IMG/VR virus record: IMGVR_UViG_2695420485_000006
Source of the DNA: a virus
Lineage: Duplodnaviria; Heunggongvirae; Uroviricota; Caudoviricetes
DNA length: 8,144 nt
Strand: one strand, 5' to 3'
Positions 2,144-8,144 of the stretch are shown here, one piece after another. Every line of letters begins with the position of its first letter. Within the stretch, counting starts at the first letter, position 1. Under the pieces are notes generated by a model that did not search any database, was not told where the DNA came from, and was given only the letters and a program-made list of their open reading frames with translations. The translations under genes and the position numbers were made by a program.

Positions 2144-3805
2144 TTATATGAAAAAAACCTCATACGCTTTCTTTTTCGGTTCCGGATTCAGGGACATCAG
2201 GGACACCGCATTGAAGAGCGCCATCAGCGGGTCAATTTTTCCCCGTCCGCTGGCCTGTTTGGTGATAAGAATGGCGTTACCTTTAGGCTCCACCCGGGCA
2301 TTGCCAACGCACCAGGCCATCAGTGGCTGACCACCATGCACCAGTACTCCCTCAGCCAGTTTGCGCTCGGTGGTTTTTATGGCCCCGCCCAGCTTCCAGC
2401 CCTGGCTTATCCCCACAACAATTCCGTCGGGGATCCCGGCTTCCGCCAGTGAATCCAGAATCTGCCCCACACCTGACGGGTCAATACCGATATGCTCCAG
2501 TAACTCAGCCTCATGAATACGACGCACATACTCCGCCACTTCCGCCGTGTCATCCCCGACCCGACGGACAATCGTCATGTCTCCACAGGCCACAAAATCC
2601 TGAAAACGGGATGCCTCACTCTTCCGTCTGACCACCGCGGTTTCATGCGCCCAGGCATGGCCCCAGCCCAGCCATTCGCGGGTTTCCCTGTCACGGCCAA
2701 TCACGTACATTCCCAGCAGATCATCCAGGCCCCCGCCGTCAATCCCCACCGTCACCACATCAGCGCGCTGCAGGATATCGTCCAGGCTGACGCGCCTGCC
2801 CTGCTGCTCCCAGAAATCCGCACCCACCCAGCGGTCAGAACGCAGGGCAAGACCAATTTCCACATTGGCATGTTTTGACATGAAGCCACGAAATGCTTCC
2901 TCACCAGCCTCCCGGGCTTTACGGTACTCCCGGTACAGAAAAGCCTCATCCACCGAATAACCGAGATTCGGGTTAACCATGGCGAGGTTTTCCATCAGCA
3001 GGTGAGCCCCGCTTTCCACCATTTCAGGAGGATGCTCAAAAATCACCGGCAGAAAGTGCGGATCATGAATTTTGCCGTCACGGACATCCCGGGCATACTG
3101 CAGTTTCTGTCTGAACACCCCGGCGGGCGGTTCATTCGACTGGGTGGTCGTATACACCACAAACCCTTCCGGACGGGAGGCAAGCCCGCCGATGGCTTCA
3201 CGTAGCATGTCTTCCGCCTTGTACTGCTTGCCAAACAGCCACAGTTCATCAATCAGTGTCCCCACGGACTTGATACCGGACACCGTATTCGGATCGGCTG
3301 CCACCACCTTCAGGGTGGTGTCCGTCACCCGATGGGTGATGGTCCGGATATGTGTCTGCACCTGACAGAGGTCATCCAGATCATCGTCCCGTCGTACCAT
3401 ATCCCTGGCAGGGTTGAAGGCGTTAGCCGCCACCTCCACGGTCGGGGCCAGAATCGTGTAACCCGCCGCCTGCCGCCAGTTCAGTAACAGTGCAGTCATC
3501 ATGATCCCCGCGGCCAGCGTGGACTTCGAGTTTTTCTTGGGGATAAGGATAAAAACTTCCTTGATATGGCGTACACCGGTCTGCGCATCGTAGGAGCCAA
3601 ACAGGGCCGCCACCAGGTCAAACACCCACGGTGCACAGGACTCCCCGAACGTAGGGCTACCAGGTGCATCCACAATCCGCAGTTGTTTAAAAATCGCCAG
3701 GGCATGTGCGGCCTCGTCCGGATAAATCGGATCCGGAATAATCGACAGCCCCTTTTGCAGGCGCTCTGCCCAGTCCGGGCAGGCTGTGCTCCATACAGGT
3801 ATCAT
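2144..3805 (-). CDS. Terminase large subunit (Terminase_1-like ATPase/nuclease)
   Basis: 553-aa ORF. ATG at 3805 overlaps the TerS stop (ATGA). Walker-A-like PKKNSKST around residues 89-96, acidic nuclease-type region VGIDGGGLDDLLG, and a C-terminus (KIDPLMALFNAV) typical of this terminase family, all from memory of the family pattern. Confidence 0.9.
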   Translation of the reverse strand: MIPVWSTACPDWAERLQKGLSIIPDPIYPDEAAHALAIFKQLRIVDAPGSPTFGESCAPWVFDLVAALFGSYDAQTGVRHIKEVFILIPKKNSKSTLAAGIMMTALLLNWRQAAGYTILAPTVEVAANAFNPARDMVRRDDDLDDLCQVQTHIRTITHRVTDTTLKVVAADPNTVSGIKSVGTLIDELWLFGKQYKAEDMLREAIGGLASRPEGFVVYTTTQSNEPPAGVFRQKLQYARDVRDGKIHDPHFLPVIFEHPPEMVESGAHLLMENLAMVNPNLGYSVDEAFLYREYRKAREAGEEAFRGFMSKHANVEIGLALRSDRWVGADFWEQQGRRVSLDDILQRADVVTVGIDGGGLDDLLGMYVIGRDRETREWLGWGHAWAHETAVVRRKSEASRFQDFVACGDMTIVRRVGDDTAEVAEYVRRIHEAELLEHIGIDPSGVGQILDSLAEAGIPDGIVVGISQGWKLGGAIKTTERKLAEGVLVHGGQPLMAWCVGNARVEPKGNAILITKQASGRGKIDPLMALFNAVSLMSLNPEPKKKAYEVFFI

Positions 3806-4365
3806 CCGTTGCCCTCATTATCGTTATTCACCACCAGTCGGGGGGGCGGTGGCACCGCAAAACGGTTAGCCGCTTTTTTCGCGGCATCACCTTTTGCCGA
3901 TTTTTTACCGGCATCGCCTTTTTTATGGTGCGTGAACTGCGCCAGACGCCAGGCCGCATCCAGTGCCAGTTTCGGATCAATGCAGAGGTTTTCCACCAGG
4001 ATCCGCCCCATGGCTTTCACCGGATCGGGAAGACCATCCTCCATATATTCAATACCAGGAGACATCACCGCGGACGGTGGCATCTCCGGATTGTTTTCGT
4101 CCGGCTGTGGTATTGCAGCCACCTCACGGCGACGGGGTTTATCCTCCTGCTCTGATTTTTTCTGCCGGTAAACAGGAACCTCATCCACCTCCACCGTCTC
4201 GCACTGTTTACGGGCTATAAACGCGAGCACCTCCGGATCTTTTGCCAGCTGCGAGCCTTTAACCCTGGCGGTCTTCGCCGAATAACCGGCGGCAATGGCT
4301 GACGCTGTTTTGTTTTTCCCGGACATGAGCGCCAGCGCAAATTTTCGTTTTTGCGTTGTCAGCAC
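3802..4365 (-). CDS. Terminase small subunit (P27/HK97-type)
   Basis: 187-aa ORF. GTG start at 4365 preceded by GGGAGGAGG. N-terminal KRKFALALMSGKNKTASAIAAGYSAKTARVKGSQLAKDPEVLAFI matches the conserved HTH region of phage terminase small subunits. Stop overlaps the TerL start. Confidence 0.85.
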   Translation of the reverse strand: MLTTQKRKFALALMSGKNKTASAIAAGYSAKTARVKGSQLAKDPEVLAFIARKQCETVEVDEVPVYRQKKSEQEDKPRRREVAAIPQPDENNPEMPPSAVMSPGIEYMEDGLPDPVKAMGRILVENLCIDPKLALDAAWRLAQFTHHKKGDAGKKSAKGDAAKKAANRFAVPPPPRLVVNNDNEGNG

Positions 4366-4437
4366 AGCCTCCTCCCGGGTCCAGAACGCACTCAGCCGGG
4401 TATGGTTCAGCCCATTTTTCCCGGCGTCTCATGCCGC

Positions 4438-4565
4438 AAATGTTAACTGCTGCCTGGTTAACATTTGCTGAAAAAGCCAGTTAACATTTTTTTCGCACAA
4501 CAAACTGAATAATAAAGATAAAAACCGCAAAAATGCCCGGGCAGCCAGTTAACATGTTAACTGCC
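4438..4565. repeat. Array of GTTAAC-core sites (putative TerS recognition elements, cosB-like)
   Basis: GTTAAC at 4442-4447, 4457-4462, 4480-4485, 4548-4553 and 4556-4561. The 12-mer GCCAGTTAACAT is repeated at 4476-4487 and 4544-4555. A perfect 18-bp palindrome CAGTTAACATGTTAACTG lies at 4546-4563. An A/T-rich block (about 4490-4530) sits between the sites. Confidence 0.5.
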
Positions 4566-4590
4566 CTGAAACAGGAATTTTTTCTCTGCA

Positions 4591-4655
4591 TGAGACGGGG
4601 GGCGGTGTCCGGGGCGATCGTTTTTTTCGCCGGATGATCCCCCCCCCGGGGCGGA
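4591..4655. other. GC-rich block with homopolymer runs; candidate cos nicking region (cosN-like)
   Basis: G6 run at 4597-4602, T7 at 4621-4627, C9 at 4639-4647. Repeated CGGGGCG(G)AT motifs. Lies between the HNH stop (4656) and the GTTAAC array. Confidence 0.35.
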
Positions 4656-5021
4656 TCACAGTCCGATGATATCGTCTGCCCTGCCATGACCTCCGGACAC
4701 CTCCGGCAGCGTCGGGTCCGGCATACCACTCGCCGTTTCACTGACTGACTTCTGGCGATGGCATTCGGTACAGAGCGTCCAGAGATTCGTCTCCTCATTA
4801 CCACCACCGAACTGAAGTGCAATGCGGTGATCGAGTTCACTGTCACAGAGGTCAACCACACGACCACAGAGACAGCACTGCCCGGCATCCCTGAGCCAGA
4901 TATGACGCTTGAGGGAAACACGTGCACTGCCACTGACACGACGCTGTTCCCCCTTCAGAATATTCACCCGTCGGGTGTTCAGAGTTTTGATTCTGCTCTG
5001 GAGTGTACGAAGCTCAGCCAT
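4656..5021 (-). CDS. HNH endonuclease (phage packaging-associated, HK97 gp74-like)
   Basis: 121-aa ORF with an HNH/zinc-finger core CCLCGR..DSELDHRIALQFGGGNEETNLWTLCTECHRQK. GGGGA Shine-Dalgarno 6 nt before the ATG. Sits immediately upstream of the cos-like region and terminase genes. Confidence 0.85.
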   Translation of the reverse strand: MAELRTLQSRIKTLNTRRVNILKGEQRRVSGSARVSLKRHIWLRDAGQCCLCGRVVDLCDSELDHRIALQFGGGNEETNLWTLCTECHRQKSVSETASGMPDPTLPEVSGGHGRADDIIGL

Positions 5022-5062
5022 GTAAAATCCCCGTCATATGGCAATCAGTAAAGGAAATAAAT

Positions 5063-5263
5063 ATGTCATCGAAAAACCGGACCCGCAGAACCACAACCCG
5101 CAATATCCGTTTCCCCAATCACATGATTGAACAGATCAACATCGCCCTTGAGCATAAAGGGTCCAGTAACTTTTCAGCGTGGGTTATTGAAGCCTGCAGG
5201 AGAAGGCTGGCAACAGATGCAACGCATCTGCGTACGGCCAGCATGACAAATAACGAGAAATGA
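5063..5263 (+). CDS. Small basic protein with predicted ribbon-helix-helix (Arc/MetJ/CopG-like) pattern; possibly YlcI/YnfO-like (DUF3950)
   Basis: 66-aa ORF. AGGAA Shine-Dalgarno 7 nt before the ATG at 5063; the track's longer ORF from 5003 lacks an SD and overlaps the HNH start. Sequence RNIRFPNHMIEQINIALEHKGSSNFSAWVIEACRRRL resembles the Arc beta-strand plus two-helix pattern. It is the only plus-strand gene in the window. Confidence 0.5.
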   Translation: MSSKNRTRRTTTRNIRFPNHMIEQINIALEHKGSSNFSAWVIEACRRRLATDATHLRTASMTNNEK

Positions 5264-5585
5264 ACGTTCGGTTTCTTCCACCATCGTACCGGACAGGCGA
5301 CTATGAGGGGACAACGCCGCGCTCCGTTAACGCGGTAAACCCCGGTGTGTATCGTTTTTGATTATCCCCGCACACTCGCGCAGAAGGAATTCCCCGTCGG
5401 GCTACGGTCATGGTTAATGCGGAAATACAGCGACGATACAGCGCATGATGTGTCAGGCTTGAATACCTTTATCCGTTAAAAGGGATATCAGTTAAGTTAT
5501 CCCGTGTAGGGTATAAGTCATTATCAAGCCCACCAGTAGATGGGCTTTGTAATGGAGAGCCGTTGTGAAAGTGGCTCTCAGACTG

Positions 5586-5789
5586 TCATTTTTTCCCTTT
5601 CTGTTTACCTGCCCACTGTTTTGCAATGTACAGGCAGTTATCGAAAATTCGGCCTTTTCTGCTGGCTTGTGAACAACGGCGGTAATGTTCCACCGCCATG
5701 TCAGCGCCAGTCATAGCCGCGTTTTGGTCGTATCCAAGCTTTATTAACTCGGTTGTTACATTTTTATGTATGAAATCAATCGGAGTCAT
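5586..5789 (-). CDS. Hypothetical small protein (67 aa), translationally coupled to the upstream Rha-like gene
   Basis: ATG at 5789 overlaps the stop of the 198-aa ORF (ATGA overlap at 5786-5789). Lys-rich C-terminus. No recognisable family. Confidence 0.45.
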   Translation of the reverse strand: MTPIDFIHKNVTTELIKLGYDQNAAMTGADMAVEHYRRCSQASRKGRIFDNCLYIAKQWAGKQKGKK

Positions 5790-6382
5790 GCTGGTTTACC
5801 ATCAGGGAAGTCCCCCATGTCACATAGCTTGAACTGAATAAGATCCTTCACAAGCTGCTCAGCCTTTTTAATGGCCTTCTTCTCTTTCTTCCGACGAGTC
5901 ATGAGAGCGCTACCTGCTTGACCGTGCATTTCAAATGAGAACTTCTCAGCAGCCGCGACACGGTTTTGCATTTCGCTGATTGCCATATCGGTCAGGCCAG
6001 AGAAATCGAGAAGGTTAATCTCCTTCCCACCCTCAAGCTCAGTCATGTGGTCATACACCTGCGCCTGAAGCTCATAGCTGTAGCTCATTGCCATGAGGCA
6101 AGCTTCACGCTTGGGAAAATTGCAAATATCCCTCTCCACAACACCACCTGTTCCGTTGATATAGGTATCAGTTGCAAAAAATTTTGCAGCTGCATCCCCG
6201 AGGACCTTGGGTACTTTCTTCATGAAACTGCGGTGTTCGAGTTTGCGATATTTCTTACAGGGGAACGCAAGCCCCTCCGCCTCCGCTTTGGATTTCCGAT
6301 CAGCATTAATGTAATCCACCATCTCAAGACTGCTCATGGTCGGGTATTCGCCAGAAGGAAGAACGGTTAATGATTTGTTCAT
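5786..6382 (-). CDS. Putative phage regulatory protein, Rha-like (antirepressor-type); assignment tentative
   Basis: 198-aa ORF. AGGAA Shine-Dalgarno 9 nt before the ATG at 6382. N-terminal half (TMSSLEMVDYIN ... LEHRSFMKKV ... EACLMAMSYSYELQAQVYDHMTELE) resembles the Rha pattern (TMSSxEIAxxTGKxHxNVMRDI ... LLxMGFTGxxAxxFKxxYIxAFNxME), but with a ~15-aa insertion. Remembered consensus only. Confidence 0.55.
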   Translation of the reverse strand: MNKSLTVLPSGEYPTMSSLEMVDYINADRKSKAEAEGLAFPCKKYRKLEHRSFMKKVPKVLGDAAAKFFATDTYINGTGGVVERDICNFPKREACLMAMSYSYELQAQVYDHMTELEGGKEINLLDFSGLTDMAISEMQNRVAAAEKFSFEMHGQAGSALMTRRKKEKKAIKKAEQLVKDLIQFKLCDMGDFPDGKPA

Positions 6383-6584: not shown

Positions 6585-7022
6585 TTATTTCAGGCATTGC
6601 GTCCTGATGTATTCCTGCAGGTAGTTAACCTGCGCGGTTATCTTGTCGATTCCACCTCGGAGACGGTAATAATTGAGTTCAGCATCTGCTGTAAGTCCTG
6701 GGCTTTCTCCATCGCCCATGCTGCTGGCTCCGGTCGTTGACTTTGCACAGGTGGCGGAGACTTGCAGGCGCTTACGCCCAGCAGAAACATCAGCACGGAG
6801 ACTTTCGATAGTCGCATTAGCATCAGCAAGCTCCTTTGTGTATCTGGCGTCAAGTTCTGCTACATCACGTTGCCGCTTCTGCATATCAGCGATGATGGAT
6901 GTGGCTCTATCGCGCTGCTCTTTGTAGGCGATGGCGTTATCACGGTAATGATTAACAGCCCATGAAAGGCAGACGATGAGGCAGATGACCAGAACGTAGA
7001 TAATCGCGGTTACTCTGCTCAT
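6585..7022 (-). CDS. Rz: Rz-type i-spanin (inner-membrane spanin subunit)
   Basis: N-terminal transmembrane helix ([20 protein letters not shown]) followed by a charged coiled-coil periplasmic domain. ATG at 7022 overlaps the endolysin stop (ATGA); the track's alternative start at 7034 adds MGAT. Contains Rz1 embedded in the +1 frame. Confidence 0.8.
6638..6823 (-). CDS. Rz1: Rz1-type o-spanin (outer-membrane lipoprotein), embedded within Rz in another frame
   Basis: Embedded ORF with lipoprotein signal peptide and lipobox ([20 protein letters not shown]) and a short proline-rich mature part ([37 protein letters not shown]), resembling lambda Rz1 from memory. Exact start is uncertain: M at 6823 or 6817; the track ORF begins at 6853. 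Confidence 0.7.
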
Positions 7023-7516
7023 TGTTGCCCCCACAAACAGACTTCACGCTCAATCTCACGGCGAGTCATCAGCCCTTTCCATTGCTTACCGCCAGCGTAT
7101 GTCCAGCGCCGTAGCTGATCACATGCGCTTTTGATATCGCCCTGGTTTATTTTGCGAAGAAGCGTCGATGTTCTGAAATTGCCAGCGCCCACGTTGTAAA
7201 CGAACGAGTAAAGAGCGCCGCGCGTTGTTTCCGGTATATCGACTTTGATGTACGGGTTTATTTGTCTGGCGACCGTGGCAAGGTCTTTATTCAGGAGGGC
7301 TTTGCATTCTGCTTCGGTATACGTTTTACCGGGCATGATGTCTTTTCCGGTGTGTCCATGACATACAGTCCATACGCCAACGATATCTTCGTATGGTATG
7401 TAGCTGACACCTTCCAGGCCATCGTCACCACTCGGACCAGTGATGAGCACAGACGCTATGGCAACAGCCCCACCACCAATAGCAGCAGCAACGGCTTTTC
7501 GTAATGATGGAGGCAT
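7019..7516 (-). CDS. R: SAR endolysin (phage lysozyme, T4-lysozyme/GH24 family, R21-like)
   Basis: 165-aa ORF. N-terminal Gly/Ala-rich weakly hydrophobic signal-anchor-release segment ([21 protein letters not shown]) followed by a lysozyme catalytic region ([23 protein letters not shown]). Start overlaps the holin stop (TAATG). Confidence 0.9.
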
Positions 7517-7722
7517 TATTCACCTCTTGCAGCCTTGCGCTTATCTTCTTTAATCTTGAAATAAAGGTTTGTCAGATACGTCAGCAGGCCAAACAGCAGA
7601 CTCCCCAGCACACCTATTGCCACCCACTGGGACGGAGAGACTTTGTCCAGCAGCTGCAGTAACCAGTATCCCGTCCCCACCGCTGACGTGGTGTATGACA
7701 CACCTGTTGTGATTTTTTCCAT
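7516..7722 (-). CDS. S: Class II holin / pinholin (phage 21 S21-like)
   Basis: 68-aa ORF with two transmembrane segments and a charged C-terminus ([13 protein letters not shown]). Near-identical in pattern to phage 21 S21 as I remember it (…[14 protein letters not shown]…[22 protein letters not shown]). GGAGA Shine-Dalgarno ~10 nt upstream. Confidence 0.9.
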
Positions 7723-7767
7723 CTGATGTATGTCTCCGTCACCGCCGACAGAAAATGAAAGTAAAGG

Positions 7768-7802
7768 AAAACAAAAAGCCGCCAGTGTCGCCCACTGACG
7801 GC
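7768..7802 (-). terminator. Strong intrinsic terminator in the late leader (tR'-like), just upstream of the holin
   Basis: Minus-strand RNA reads GCCGUCAGUG-GGCGA-CACUGGCGGC (10-bp stem, one G-U pair) followed by UUUUUGUUUU; ends ~46 nt before the holin start codon. Confidence 0.6.
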
Positions 7803-7980
7803 CAACGCCGGGAGCCGTGATTATGGCATTCAGGCTCTGCTAAAAATGCCAGATAACATTCCGGCTCCCCCCCCCTGATTCAGGTTATAAATGACACAAT
7901 ATCTTGACAACACCCATCACTGTCTGTCAGAAAATGTACTGCCAGATATAAGTATCATGTGAAACCCAACTATCCTTCTT

Positions 7981-8023
7981 AGCCAGTACTTCTCCGACGA
8001 AAGTCAGTACTGGCTGTTTTTTT
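7981..8023 (+). terminator. Perfect 10-bp hairpin followed by a T7 run on the plus strand (antisense to the late operon)
   Basis: AGCCAGTACT (7981-7990) and AGTACTGGCT (8006-8015) are exact reverse complements. The 15-nt loop contains GAC-GAAA-GTC (possible inner stem with GNRA tetraloop). Followed by G then T7 (8017-8023). On the minus strand the same hairpin has no U-tract. Confidence 0.5.
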
Positions 8024-8024
8024 A

Positions 8025-8144
8025 TTATGCTGCCGGTGCATTTATCTCCAGCACCAGACTTTCTATCTCAACGCCATACGCTGCATTTTTTGTAACATCC
8101 GTCAGCGTCAGCGCATTCAGTCCCAGTGTCAGACTGTCTTTTAT
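8025..8144 (-). CDS. C-terminal fragment of an upstream gene (runs off the window end); possibly a Q-type late antiterminator, by position only
   Basis: Only one minus-strand frame is open across 8144..8028 (…IKDSLTLGLNALTLTDVTKNAAYGVEIESLVLEINAPAA, stop TAA at 8027-8025). Its position upstream of the late leader, terminator and holin matches the Q-pR'-tR'-S layout of lambdoid phages. No sequence-based identification. Confidence 0.35.
   Translation of the reverse strand: MKDSLTLGLNALTLTDVTKNAAYGVEIESLVLEINAPAA

Follow-up and report, generated by a model that had tools for sequence, protein, structure and literature searches.

Long irregular hairpins in the polycistronic mRNAs of phages, such as lambda sib and the T7 sites, are processed by RNase III. 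RNase III sites in the lambda late transcript were reportedly described by Daniels et al. (1988, Virology 167:568; cited in PMC7547250). In the HK620 and Sf6 genome papers, short "boundary sequences" were reportedly described at module joints. Lambdoid prophages also encode small RNAs (sRNAs): AgvB and AsxR (PMC4104026) and PasA-D and STnc100 (bioRxiv 10.64898/2026.05.13.724894) are primary transcripts of 50-100 nucleotides (nt) with promoters and terminators of their own, located between Q/PR' and the holin gene. Here we describe a 322-bp spacer (positions 5264-5585) in an 8,144-nt stretch of DNA (IMG/VR record IMGVR_UViG_2695420485_000006, hereafter the window), which is the late region of an Escherichia coli lambdoid prophage with its late genes on the minus strand (the late strand). 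Sequence comparison resolves this spacer into two conserved mosaic blocks, A and B. It is non-coding, and together the blocks form a conserved, structured module on the late-transcript strand at the junction of the lysis and packaging genes.

Hairpins of the spacer and their conservation

The spacer lies between the stop codon of ylcI (5263, plus strand) and that of a 67-amino-acid (aa) open reading frame (ORF) of the late strand (5586). A preliminary description of this DNA had presented it as an unusually long intergenic region between convergent genes. The length holds but the premise of a convergent intergenic region does not: ylcI is an antisense insert and the late operon continues beyond it, so that the spacer amounts to a part of the late transcript that is not translated. 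No sigma-70 promoter and no intrinsic terminator (0 sites) was found on either strand between 4950 and 5850, so that late transcription should run through the spacer.

The repeats on which the preliminary description was based were all recovered, both in a coordinate check against the sequence and by repeat finding. They are GGGATA (5482-5487) and TATCCC (5498-5503), TATCC (5470-5474) and GGGTAT (5509-5514), CCGTTAACGCGG (5324-5335) and GGTTAATGCGG (5412-5422), AGCCCA and TGGGCT (around 5527-5546), and GAGAGCC (5555-5561) with GGCTCTC (5573-5579). We also found an imperfect 19-nt inverted repeat (5469-5487 with 5498-5516), a 14-nt inverted repeat (5519-5532 with 5541-5554) and a long-range pair that had not been listed before, TGTATCGT (5348-5355) with ACGATACA (5433-5440).

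Folded as minus-strand RNA, the whole spacer forms six hairpins (HP1 to HP6) with a z score of -3.5, and 0 of 100 shuffled sequences were as stable, whereas the plus-strand RNA gave a z score of 0.07. The segment 5465-5556 taken alone reached z = -5.7 on the minus strand and -4.2 on the plus strand. Folding of the alignment gave -85.9 kcal/mol on the minus strand (column-shuffle z of -10.9) versus -51.4 kcal/mol on the plus strand (z of -2.7).

HP4 (5349..5439, minus strand) is the core of block A, a mosaic unit of about 5265-5445 that comprises HP4, HP5 and HP6. It is a long irregular hairpin of 26 pairs arranged in four coaxial helices: helix I (5439-5433 with 5355-5349), helix II (5427-5417 with 5373-5363), helix III (5406-5402 with 5383-5379) and helix IV (5401-5399 with 5394-5392), all on the minus strand. 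Among 67 distinct sequences, 98.8% of 1731 cells are paired, and six pairs show compensatory double changes. Registers slid along the alignment gave at most 67% pairing and none of 500 shuffles reached the observed values. In helix II the double changes arose independently, namely C-G to G-C in lambda, C-G to U-A in E. ruysiae and G-C to A-U in Raoultella, with a further case in Salmonella phage 29485. RNAalifold, run independently, arrived at helix I and at 7 bp of helix II, the outer ones; helices I and II together amount to 18 well-supported base pairs.

HP5 (5317..5335, minus strand) pairs CCGCG with CGCGG around a 9-nt loop that contains the GTTAAC core already pointed out in the preliminary description. 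Its cells are paired in 94.9% of cases, with changes between CG and UA, and its loop sequence differs between lineages. HP6 (5267..5293, minus strand) pairs UCCGGU with ACCGAA around a 15-nt loop and forms the 3' end of block A on the late strand. Here 97.6% of cells are paired; at pair 5290/5270, 42 variants have GC, 19 have UA and 9 have GU. The UUAAC or GGAUAA loop repeats were considered as a multi-site protein target of the CsrA kind; this candidate was rejected, the HP5 copy not being conserved across lineages.

Block B (about 5465-5555, with limits set by breakpoints) is the mosaic unit made of HP2 and HP3. HP2 (5519..5554, minus strand) is two-tiered, with a 5-bp lower stem (CAUUA/UAAUG), a 2x2 CA/GA internal loop, a 9-bp upper stem (AAGCCCAUC/GGUGGGCUU) and the loop UACU. 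The 36 variants of HP2, found in 168 copies, fall into three upper-stem families that are unrelated in sequence and share one architecture: a 5-bp lower stem, an invariant CA/GA internal loop, an upper stem of 9-10 bp and variable loops. HP3 (5469..5516, minus strand), the core of block B, is irregular, with a basal UUAUaCC/GGAUAA pairing, an apical GGGAUA/UAUCCC stem and a 10-nt loop; an alternative UAUCC/GGAUA pairing could compete with it. Its variants are few and consist of loop changes or of one late-strand G.U pair. HP1 (5555..5579, minus strand) is a 7-bp GAGAGCC/GGCUCUC stem that begins 6 nt past the stop codon of the 67-aa ORF. It is specific to this prophage type and shared only by the few loci that also carry that ORF.

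Wobble pairs distinguish the two strands, since a G.U pair on one strand is a C.A mismatch on the other; HP4 is thus 98.8% paired on the late strand versus 86.8% on the plus strand. On the late strand HP4 contains 213 G.U versus 6 A.C cells (14 versus 4 pair positions), HP6 30 versus 3 and HP5 21 versus 6. HP2 was more stable on the late strand in 26 out of 36 variants, with a mean ddG of -2.7 kcal/mol, and covariation is seen among its three stem families. The asymmetry points to the late strand. In all, compensatory substitutions and substitutions that tolerate wobble pairing have preserved the hairpins, in a pattern that suits an RNA of this strand.

Distribution and placement of blocks A and B

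The preliminary description had proposed an alignment with related prophages to see whether the spacer is conserved or filler. The comparison shows a widely shared module. Similarity searches found block A in phage lambda, in 933W-type Shiga toxin (Stx) phages and in DLP12; in lambda the core lies at about 46874-46971, between bor and lambdap78. Among 5426 complete E. coli genomes the block A core (5340-5450) is present in 2984 (55%), with up to 10 copies per genome, and block B in 2500 (46%). The copies in E. coli number roughly 7200. Outside Escherichia and Shigella, block A was found in one Salmonella phage and one Raoultella genome, and a scan of contigs limited it to Escherichia and Raoultella, plus contaminant contigs of lambda DNA. 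The latter are about 25 matching contigs (loci L227-L260) assigned to unrelated taxa such as Pseudomonas, Cohnella, Kitasatospora, Flavobacterium and Pedobacter; with lengths that in several cases are close to 3.5 kb or 48.4 kb, they resemble leftover phage lambda control DNA in the assemblies.

Block B occurs in HK97, HK022, HK620, Sf6, epsilon34 and many mEp and Stx phages, and in 106 phage records its 65-nt core keeps an identity of at least 92%. Block B stands immediately ahead of the Shine-Dalgarno (SD) sequence and ATG of the DUF2560 gene in P22-like phages and HK97. HP2 also directly follows the last ORF of the lysis module in HK97, HK620 and O55:H7, and in Sf6 it begins about 15 nt past the gp65 stop codon. 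In Sf6, HK97, HK620 and mEp235 it is duplicated around late-strand inserts. P22-like phages, HK97 and POCJ13 have a further conserved non-coding block of about 170 nt between two HP2 copies (HK97 850-1040; HK620 and others), which holds the start of a short ORF (MNLQPYGKK...) and may be the remnant of a gene like ST64T orf118. No A-like hairpin was found in P22-like phages with a covariance model of HP4 (R1), which retrieved only the already known copies in 94 sources, one per phage and one in the window.

The placement of the blocks is constant. All of the more than 190 loci that carry A, B or both have them between Rz and the packaging genes, and their orientation relative to the late operon never differs. 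Five kinds of packaging module stand beside them (Nu1-type, HNH plus TerS, Fels-1-type, 933W-type and P22-type), and the position does not depend on whether ylcI, bor, ybcV, a TonB-like gene or KilA-N-type genes are nearby. In 30 loci block A starts at most 100 nt from the Rz stop codon, and in one of them (L103) at about 12 nt. The edges of the blocks (about 5265-5273, 5330, 5445, 5465 and 5555) coincide with mosaic breakpoints. Prophages of the O55:H7 type carry, exactly between the ylcI stop codon and block A, an insertion that consists of a 327-bp gene of the late strand, for a TonB-C-like lipoprotein, and about 280 bp of flanking DNA (3264-3870 of locus L002 versus 5264-5273 of the window).

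Known families, signals and coding potential

The covariance-model search suggested in the preliminary description returned no known RNA family. Rfam 15 had no match in the spacer when the whole window was searched at E <= 1, and at E <= 10 the region 5200-5650 gave only a chance nuoG match at 5597-5650, outside the spacer; the AgvB, AsxR, Esr41, STnc100 and IsrK models were not matched. ARAGORN found 0 tRNA or tmRNA genes in the window. The stem-loops of HP1, HP2 and HP5 are G+C-rich as in terminators, but no U-run stands 3' of a stem (the late-strand tail of HP2 is GAUAAUGAC), and with no U-tract after any of the hairpins the earlier suggestion that the spacer holds terminators falls away.

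The spacer contains a plus-strand ORF at 5345-5479 (44 aa here, 58 aa in PhiR40_1) for which no Pfam or PHROG family was found. ORF-84 of the 933W-type phages, which runs on the late strand over the same DNA, matches only PHROGs that hold its own copies. A search of 5.8 billion proteins returned 73 relatives, all of them copies of the element in Escherichia or Shigella, 35-91 aa long with shifting ends, and none was a larger protein containing the spacer ORF. Variable sites by codon position (14/5/11) showed no significant pattern, and the lambda-type and O55-type variants are frameshifted in the plus-strand ORF. The idea of a decayed gene was therefore abandoned: no frame has a protein family or a longer homologue, the codon-position pattern is not gene-like, and no similarity to an intact gene or family elsewhere was found in Pfam, PHROG or the 5.8 billion proteins. 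Public records do call ORFs over the element, such as 933W ORF-84 (L003 1295-1540, minus strand), which has its own PHROG labelled "Rz-like spanin", and plus-strand ORFs of 44-60 aa (window 5345-5479) that are sometimes labelled "Arginyl-tRNA synthetase". These ORF calls look like annotation artefacts.

A late-strand mini-ORF of 10 codons, MRCIVAVFPH* (5446->5414), was likewise set aside. It is kept in most variants, overlaps the 5' half of HP4 and ends in the invariant AUUAAC loop. It has no SD sequence, its start codon is absent in about 10 of the 67 variants and in lambda, and its codon-position pattern (4:3:6) is not significant.

Block A was also considered as the promoter of bor and rejected. 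The gene borD is activated by PhoP. Between block A and the bor start codon lies TGTTTAGGGTTTGTTTA, a direct repeat fitting a PhoP box (lambda, about 1380-1420 in locus L223; DLP12; L003). This PhoP-box-like repeat and an AT-rich promoter region, both absent from the window, stand between block A and bor, so that the bor promoter falls outside block A. With the PhoP-box stretch upstream of bor the B core shows a weak alignment (GTGTAGGGTAT).

In the genome records listed the blocks are unannotated; overall they are unannotated or mis-annotated as small ORFs. An exact-sequence literature search for the spacer gave no match, and no description of the element was found in the literature on ylcI/ynfO, prophage sRNAs and RNase III. 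A paper on E. coli RNase III targets has no mention of borD, ybcV, rzpD or DLP12, the K-12 prophage that carries the core.

Genomic context of the spacer

In order of transcription, the late genes of the window (all minus strand) are a holin (7516-7722), a lysozyme (7019-7516), Rz (6585-7034), an Ant/Rha-like ORF of 198 aa (5786-6382) and the 67-aa ORF (5586-5789, phrog_4439), which is the last before the spacer and lies outside the element. The spacer is followed by an HNH endonuclease gene (4656-5021), the small terminase (3802-4365), the large terminase (2144-3805) and an ORF of 645 aa (143-2080), annotated as a phage major capsid protein in the near-identical prophage L001. The sole plus-strand gene is ylcI/ynfO (DUF3950; 5063-5263; PF13132, E = 4.6e-20), which flanks the element and is antisense to late genes in K-12 DLP12 and Qin as well.

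A 290-bp gap (4366-4655) separates the HNH endonuclease gene from that of the small terminase; the arrangement in HK97 makes it the expected place of the cos site. The gap between an esterase gene and the holin gene (7723-8022) contains two terminator-like sites of the late strand (7803->7777 and 7865->7848), and a strong plus-strand hairpin followed by U7 lies at about 7980-8025, with a weak ncr982 match. This is the position at which convergent prophage sRNAs (AgvB/AsxR, PasA/C) have been described, and no Rfam model for them was matched there.

Discussion

We consider it about an even bet that the spacer is a cis-acting structured RNA element of the late mRNA, the strand that its substitution pattern favours. 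Such an element would probably affect the processing or stabilisation of the long late mRNA, its hairpins acting in cis. HP1 and HP2 would serve as a 3' stability barrier, a role that suits them because both directly follow the stop codon of the last lysis-module ORF. HP4, with its internal loops and about 18-26 bp, may be a site of sib-type or RNase III processing: it is a roughly two-turn irregular hairpin within an mRNA and its RNA structure is conserved. Processing at HP4 would give the lysis mRNA a fate of its own, separate from that of the packaging and head mRNA. The invariance of the loops and of the B core suggests that a host factor shared by E. coli and Salmonella recognises them. 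We hold the specific RNase III or retroregulation version with much less confidence than the cis-acting element as such.

A broader proposal, which we regard as unlikely in its full form, is that blocks A and B constitute an unrecognised family of cis-regulatory RNAs, a "post-lysis-cassette element" of the lambdoid late operon (about 46.87-46.97 kb in lambda). It would balance the expression of lysis and morphogenesis genes, for example if RNase III retroregulated the S-R-Rz message in the manner of sib or if a host factor bound the invariant loops, and HP2 would mark the cassette borders, where late-strand inserts are exchanged.

Several observations weigh against a cis-acting RNA. The apex of HP4 is ambiguous, RNAalifold preferring a different fold there; the single-sequence fold of HP4 beats shuffled sequences only mildly (z = -1.3); and the lambda copy folds better on the bor-sense strand (z = -3.6 versus -1.8). 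For many of the sequences, retrieval relied on exact 27-mer and 37-mer patterns, so that one strand of helix II and the B core are fixed by construction. The variants are related by recombination, so that the cells are not independent events and their counts overstate the number of events. Since the block edges are mosaic joints, part of the conservation could stem from recombination instead of RNA function, and that of the B core, too invariant for covariation, could reflect a role at the DNA level. The putative RNase III and stability roles, for their part, are read from anatomy and position.

Of the other explanations, the best placed is a role on the plus strand, which we judge unlikely. 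The spacer would then be the 3' untranslated region or terminator region of the antisense inserts (ylcI; ybcV/lambdap78) and the upstream leader of bor, with HP2 as a weak or bidirectional terminator that keeps lysogen transcripts from entering the lysis genes in antisense. Read on the strand of these genes, block A indeed comes right after ybcV/lambdap78 or ylcI and ahead of bor in lambda, DLP12 and 933W-type phages. HP2 is followed on the plus strand by UUUGUAAU or UUUUGUAAU, one of its stem families is more stable on that strand (-23.2 versus -19.2 kcal/mol), and the lambda HP4 shares this preference, as noted above. The ybcW-ylcI pair of K-12 DLP12 is listed in RNA-seq data as a convergent "excludon" with overlapping 3' ends (PMC12288877; L006 5088-5251). 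Both strands of that ylcI-convergent spacer are transcribed in K-12, though it is devoid of blocks A and B. The ratios of G.U to A.C in HP4, HP6 and HP5 favour the other strand, the plus strand leaves more than a tenth of HP4 cells unpaired, and the 26 HP2 variants that are weaker there are so by 6-9 kcal/mol in several cases. Moreover, the terminator scan passed no site, the PhoP-box-like promoter region close to bor is outside block A, and the blocks persist where no plus-strand gene stands on either side, as in Fels-1-type and P22-like contexts.

A second possibility, quite unlikely in our view, is that the blocks are linkers at the DNA level, that is shared homology for swapping lysis, insert and packaging modules that has spread by recombination and has no RNA function. 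Conserved non-coding sequence is found at the joints of exchangeable modules in different phages. The position of the block edges at breakpoints, the joining of the same blocks to all five packaging-module types and to several lysis and insert sets, the HP2 copies that flank inserted genes in Sf6, HK97 and HK620, and a near-invariant B core, as expected after recent spread, agree with this. The Sf6 record also has a "bsq7 boundary sequence" feature near the block. Recombination homology, however, needs no base-pairing. It leaves unexplained the compensatory double changes in helix II, HP6 and HP2, the single architecture of three unrelated HP2 stems and the strand-specific tolerance of G.U pairs.

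The preliminary description had also raised the possibility of a small RNA. A structured non-coding RNA is supported in a wider sense, its conserved structures fitting best a part of the long late-strand mRNA; for an independent small RNA no promoter or terminator was found. A trans-acting sRNA produced from the spacer and pairing with host or phage targets, in the manner of the anti-sRNAs AgvB/AsxR or the Pas sRNAs, is very unlikely. It would account for the strongly conserved single-stranded loops (AUAAUCAAAAACGAU and AUUAAC in HP4) and for the B core, and prophages are a rich source of sRNAs (PMC4104026; bioRxiv 10.64898/2026.05.13.724894). An sRNA gene would have its own promoter and terminator, and neither signal was present on either strand in and around the spacer (4950-5850). 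Rfam had no match even at E <= 10, including AgvB, AsxR, Esr41 and STnc100, the sequence was unmatched in the literature search, and the prophage sRNAs described so far sit downstream of PR' and before the holin gene, not after Rz.

That the spacer encodes a small protein (the plus-strand ORF at 5345-5479, which reaches 58-60 aa in some phages) or is a gene remnant is highly improbable. Most variants leave the frame IVFDYPRTLAQ(KEF/RSL)PVGLRS... open, neither a multi-nucleotide replacement nor a 9-nt deletion shifts it, and some genomes annotate the ORF. Against this, the ORF has a GTG start without an SD sequence here, two 1-nt indels disrupt the frame of the upstream ATG, and an ORF of the opposite strand, ORF-84, is called over the same DNA in 933W-type phages; the missing protein family, relatives that are all copies of the element, the frameshifted variants and the codon positions of the variable sites also speak against it.

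Finally, the earlier suggestion that the repeats are operators for the adjacent ribbon-helix-helix (RHH)-like YlcI is scarcely credible: ylcI adjoins the spacer in the window and the TATCC/GGATA and GTTAA motifs recur, but the repeats are 3' of ylcI and not at its promoter, the blocks keep their place and orientation in many phages that lack ylcI (Fels-1-type, 933W-type, P22-like, HK97), ylcI occurs without adjacent blocks in K-12 Qin and two genes away from block A in DLP12, a TonB-like gene separates the two in O55:H7, and the substitution pattern is RNA-like.

If the spacer is a functional RNA, the best-studied phage late operon gains a post-transcriptional control point at the very junction where the amount of lysis message relative to head and packaging message is decided, and this would also explain why the stretch stays conserved amid shuffled surroundings. 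Textbook phages carry the element: lambda has block A, block B is found in HK97, HK022, Sf6 and HK620, and both blocks occur among Stx-converting phages. In practice it can serve as a marker of the lysis/packaging junction in prophage annotation and as a warning against ORF calls there.

Comparison with known systems

Like terminators and the 3' stem-loops of the repetitive extragenic palindromic (REP) type, HP1 and HP2 stand a few nt past the stop codon of the preceding ORF, and the record of phage Ayreon annotates HP2 as a late-strand terminator. HP2 differs from terminators in having no late-strand U-tract, and its conserved 2x2 CA/GA loop and lower stem are not terminator features; neither HP1 nor HP2 is similar to REP sequences.

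The element resembles AgvB/AsxR and PasA-D/STnc100 in being conserved, non-coding and often multicopy, at a fixed position of lambdoid prophages and in insert-rich zones. It differs from them in its position after Rz, in the absence of promoter and terminator signals and in being unmatched by the AgvB, AsxR and STnc100 models of Rfam.

With the boundary or linker sequences of lambdoid phages, the blocks share the character of short conserved non-coding DNA that stands exactly at lysis, insert and packaging joints and is common to modules otherwise unrelated. The blocks are longer (about 90 and about 180 bp), in the part of the Sf6 record examined no "bsq" feature is annotated over them, and they show compensatory changes and strand-specific tolerance of wobble pairs. 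Recombination homology alone does not predict these two properties, which thus set the blocks apart from plain linkers.

A further likeness is to lambda sib, known from int retroregulation, the T7 intercistronic sites and the lambda N leader, which, as proposed for HP4, are RNase III hairpins inside a phage mRNA. As in sib-type sites, HP4 is long, irregular and internally looped, belongs to a polycistronic mRNA, in which it comes right after a block of genes, in this case the lysis cassette, and is conserved on the mRNA strand. The element has no sequence similarity to these sites, adds the conserved hairpins HP2, HP3, HP5 and HP6 as well as invariant loops, and its cleavage is a prediction. 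By its sequence features, with a function that is predicted from them, the element would belong with the conserved cis-acting hairpin elements of phage mRNAs.

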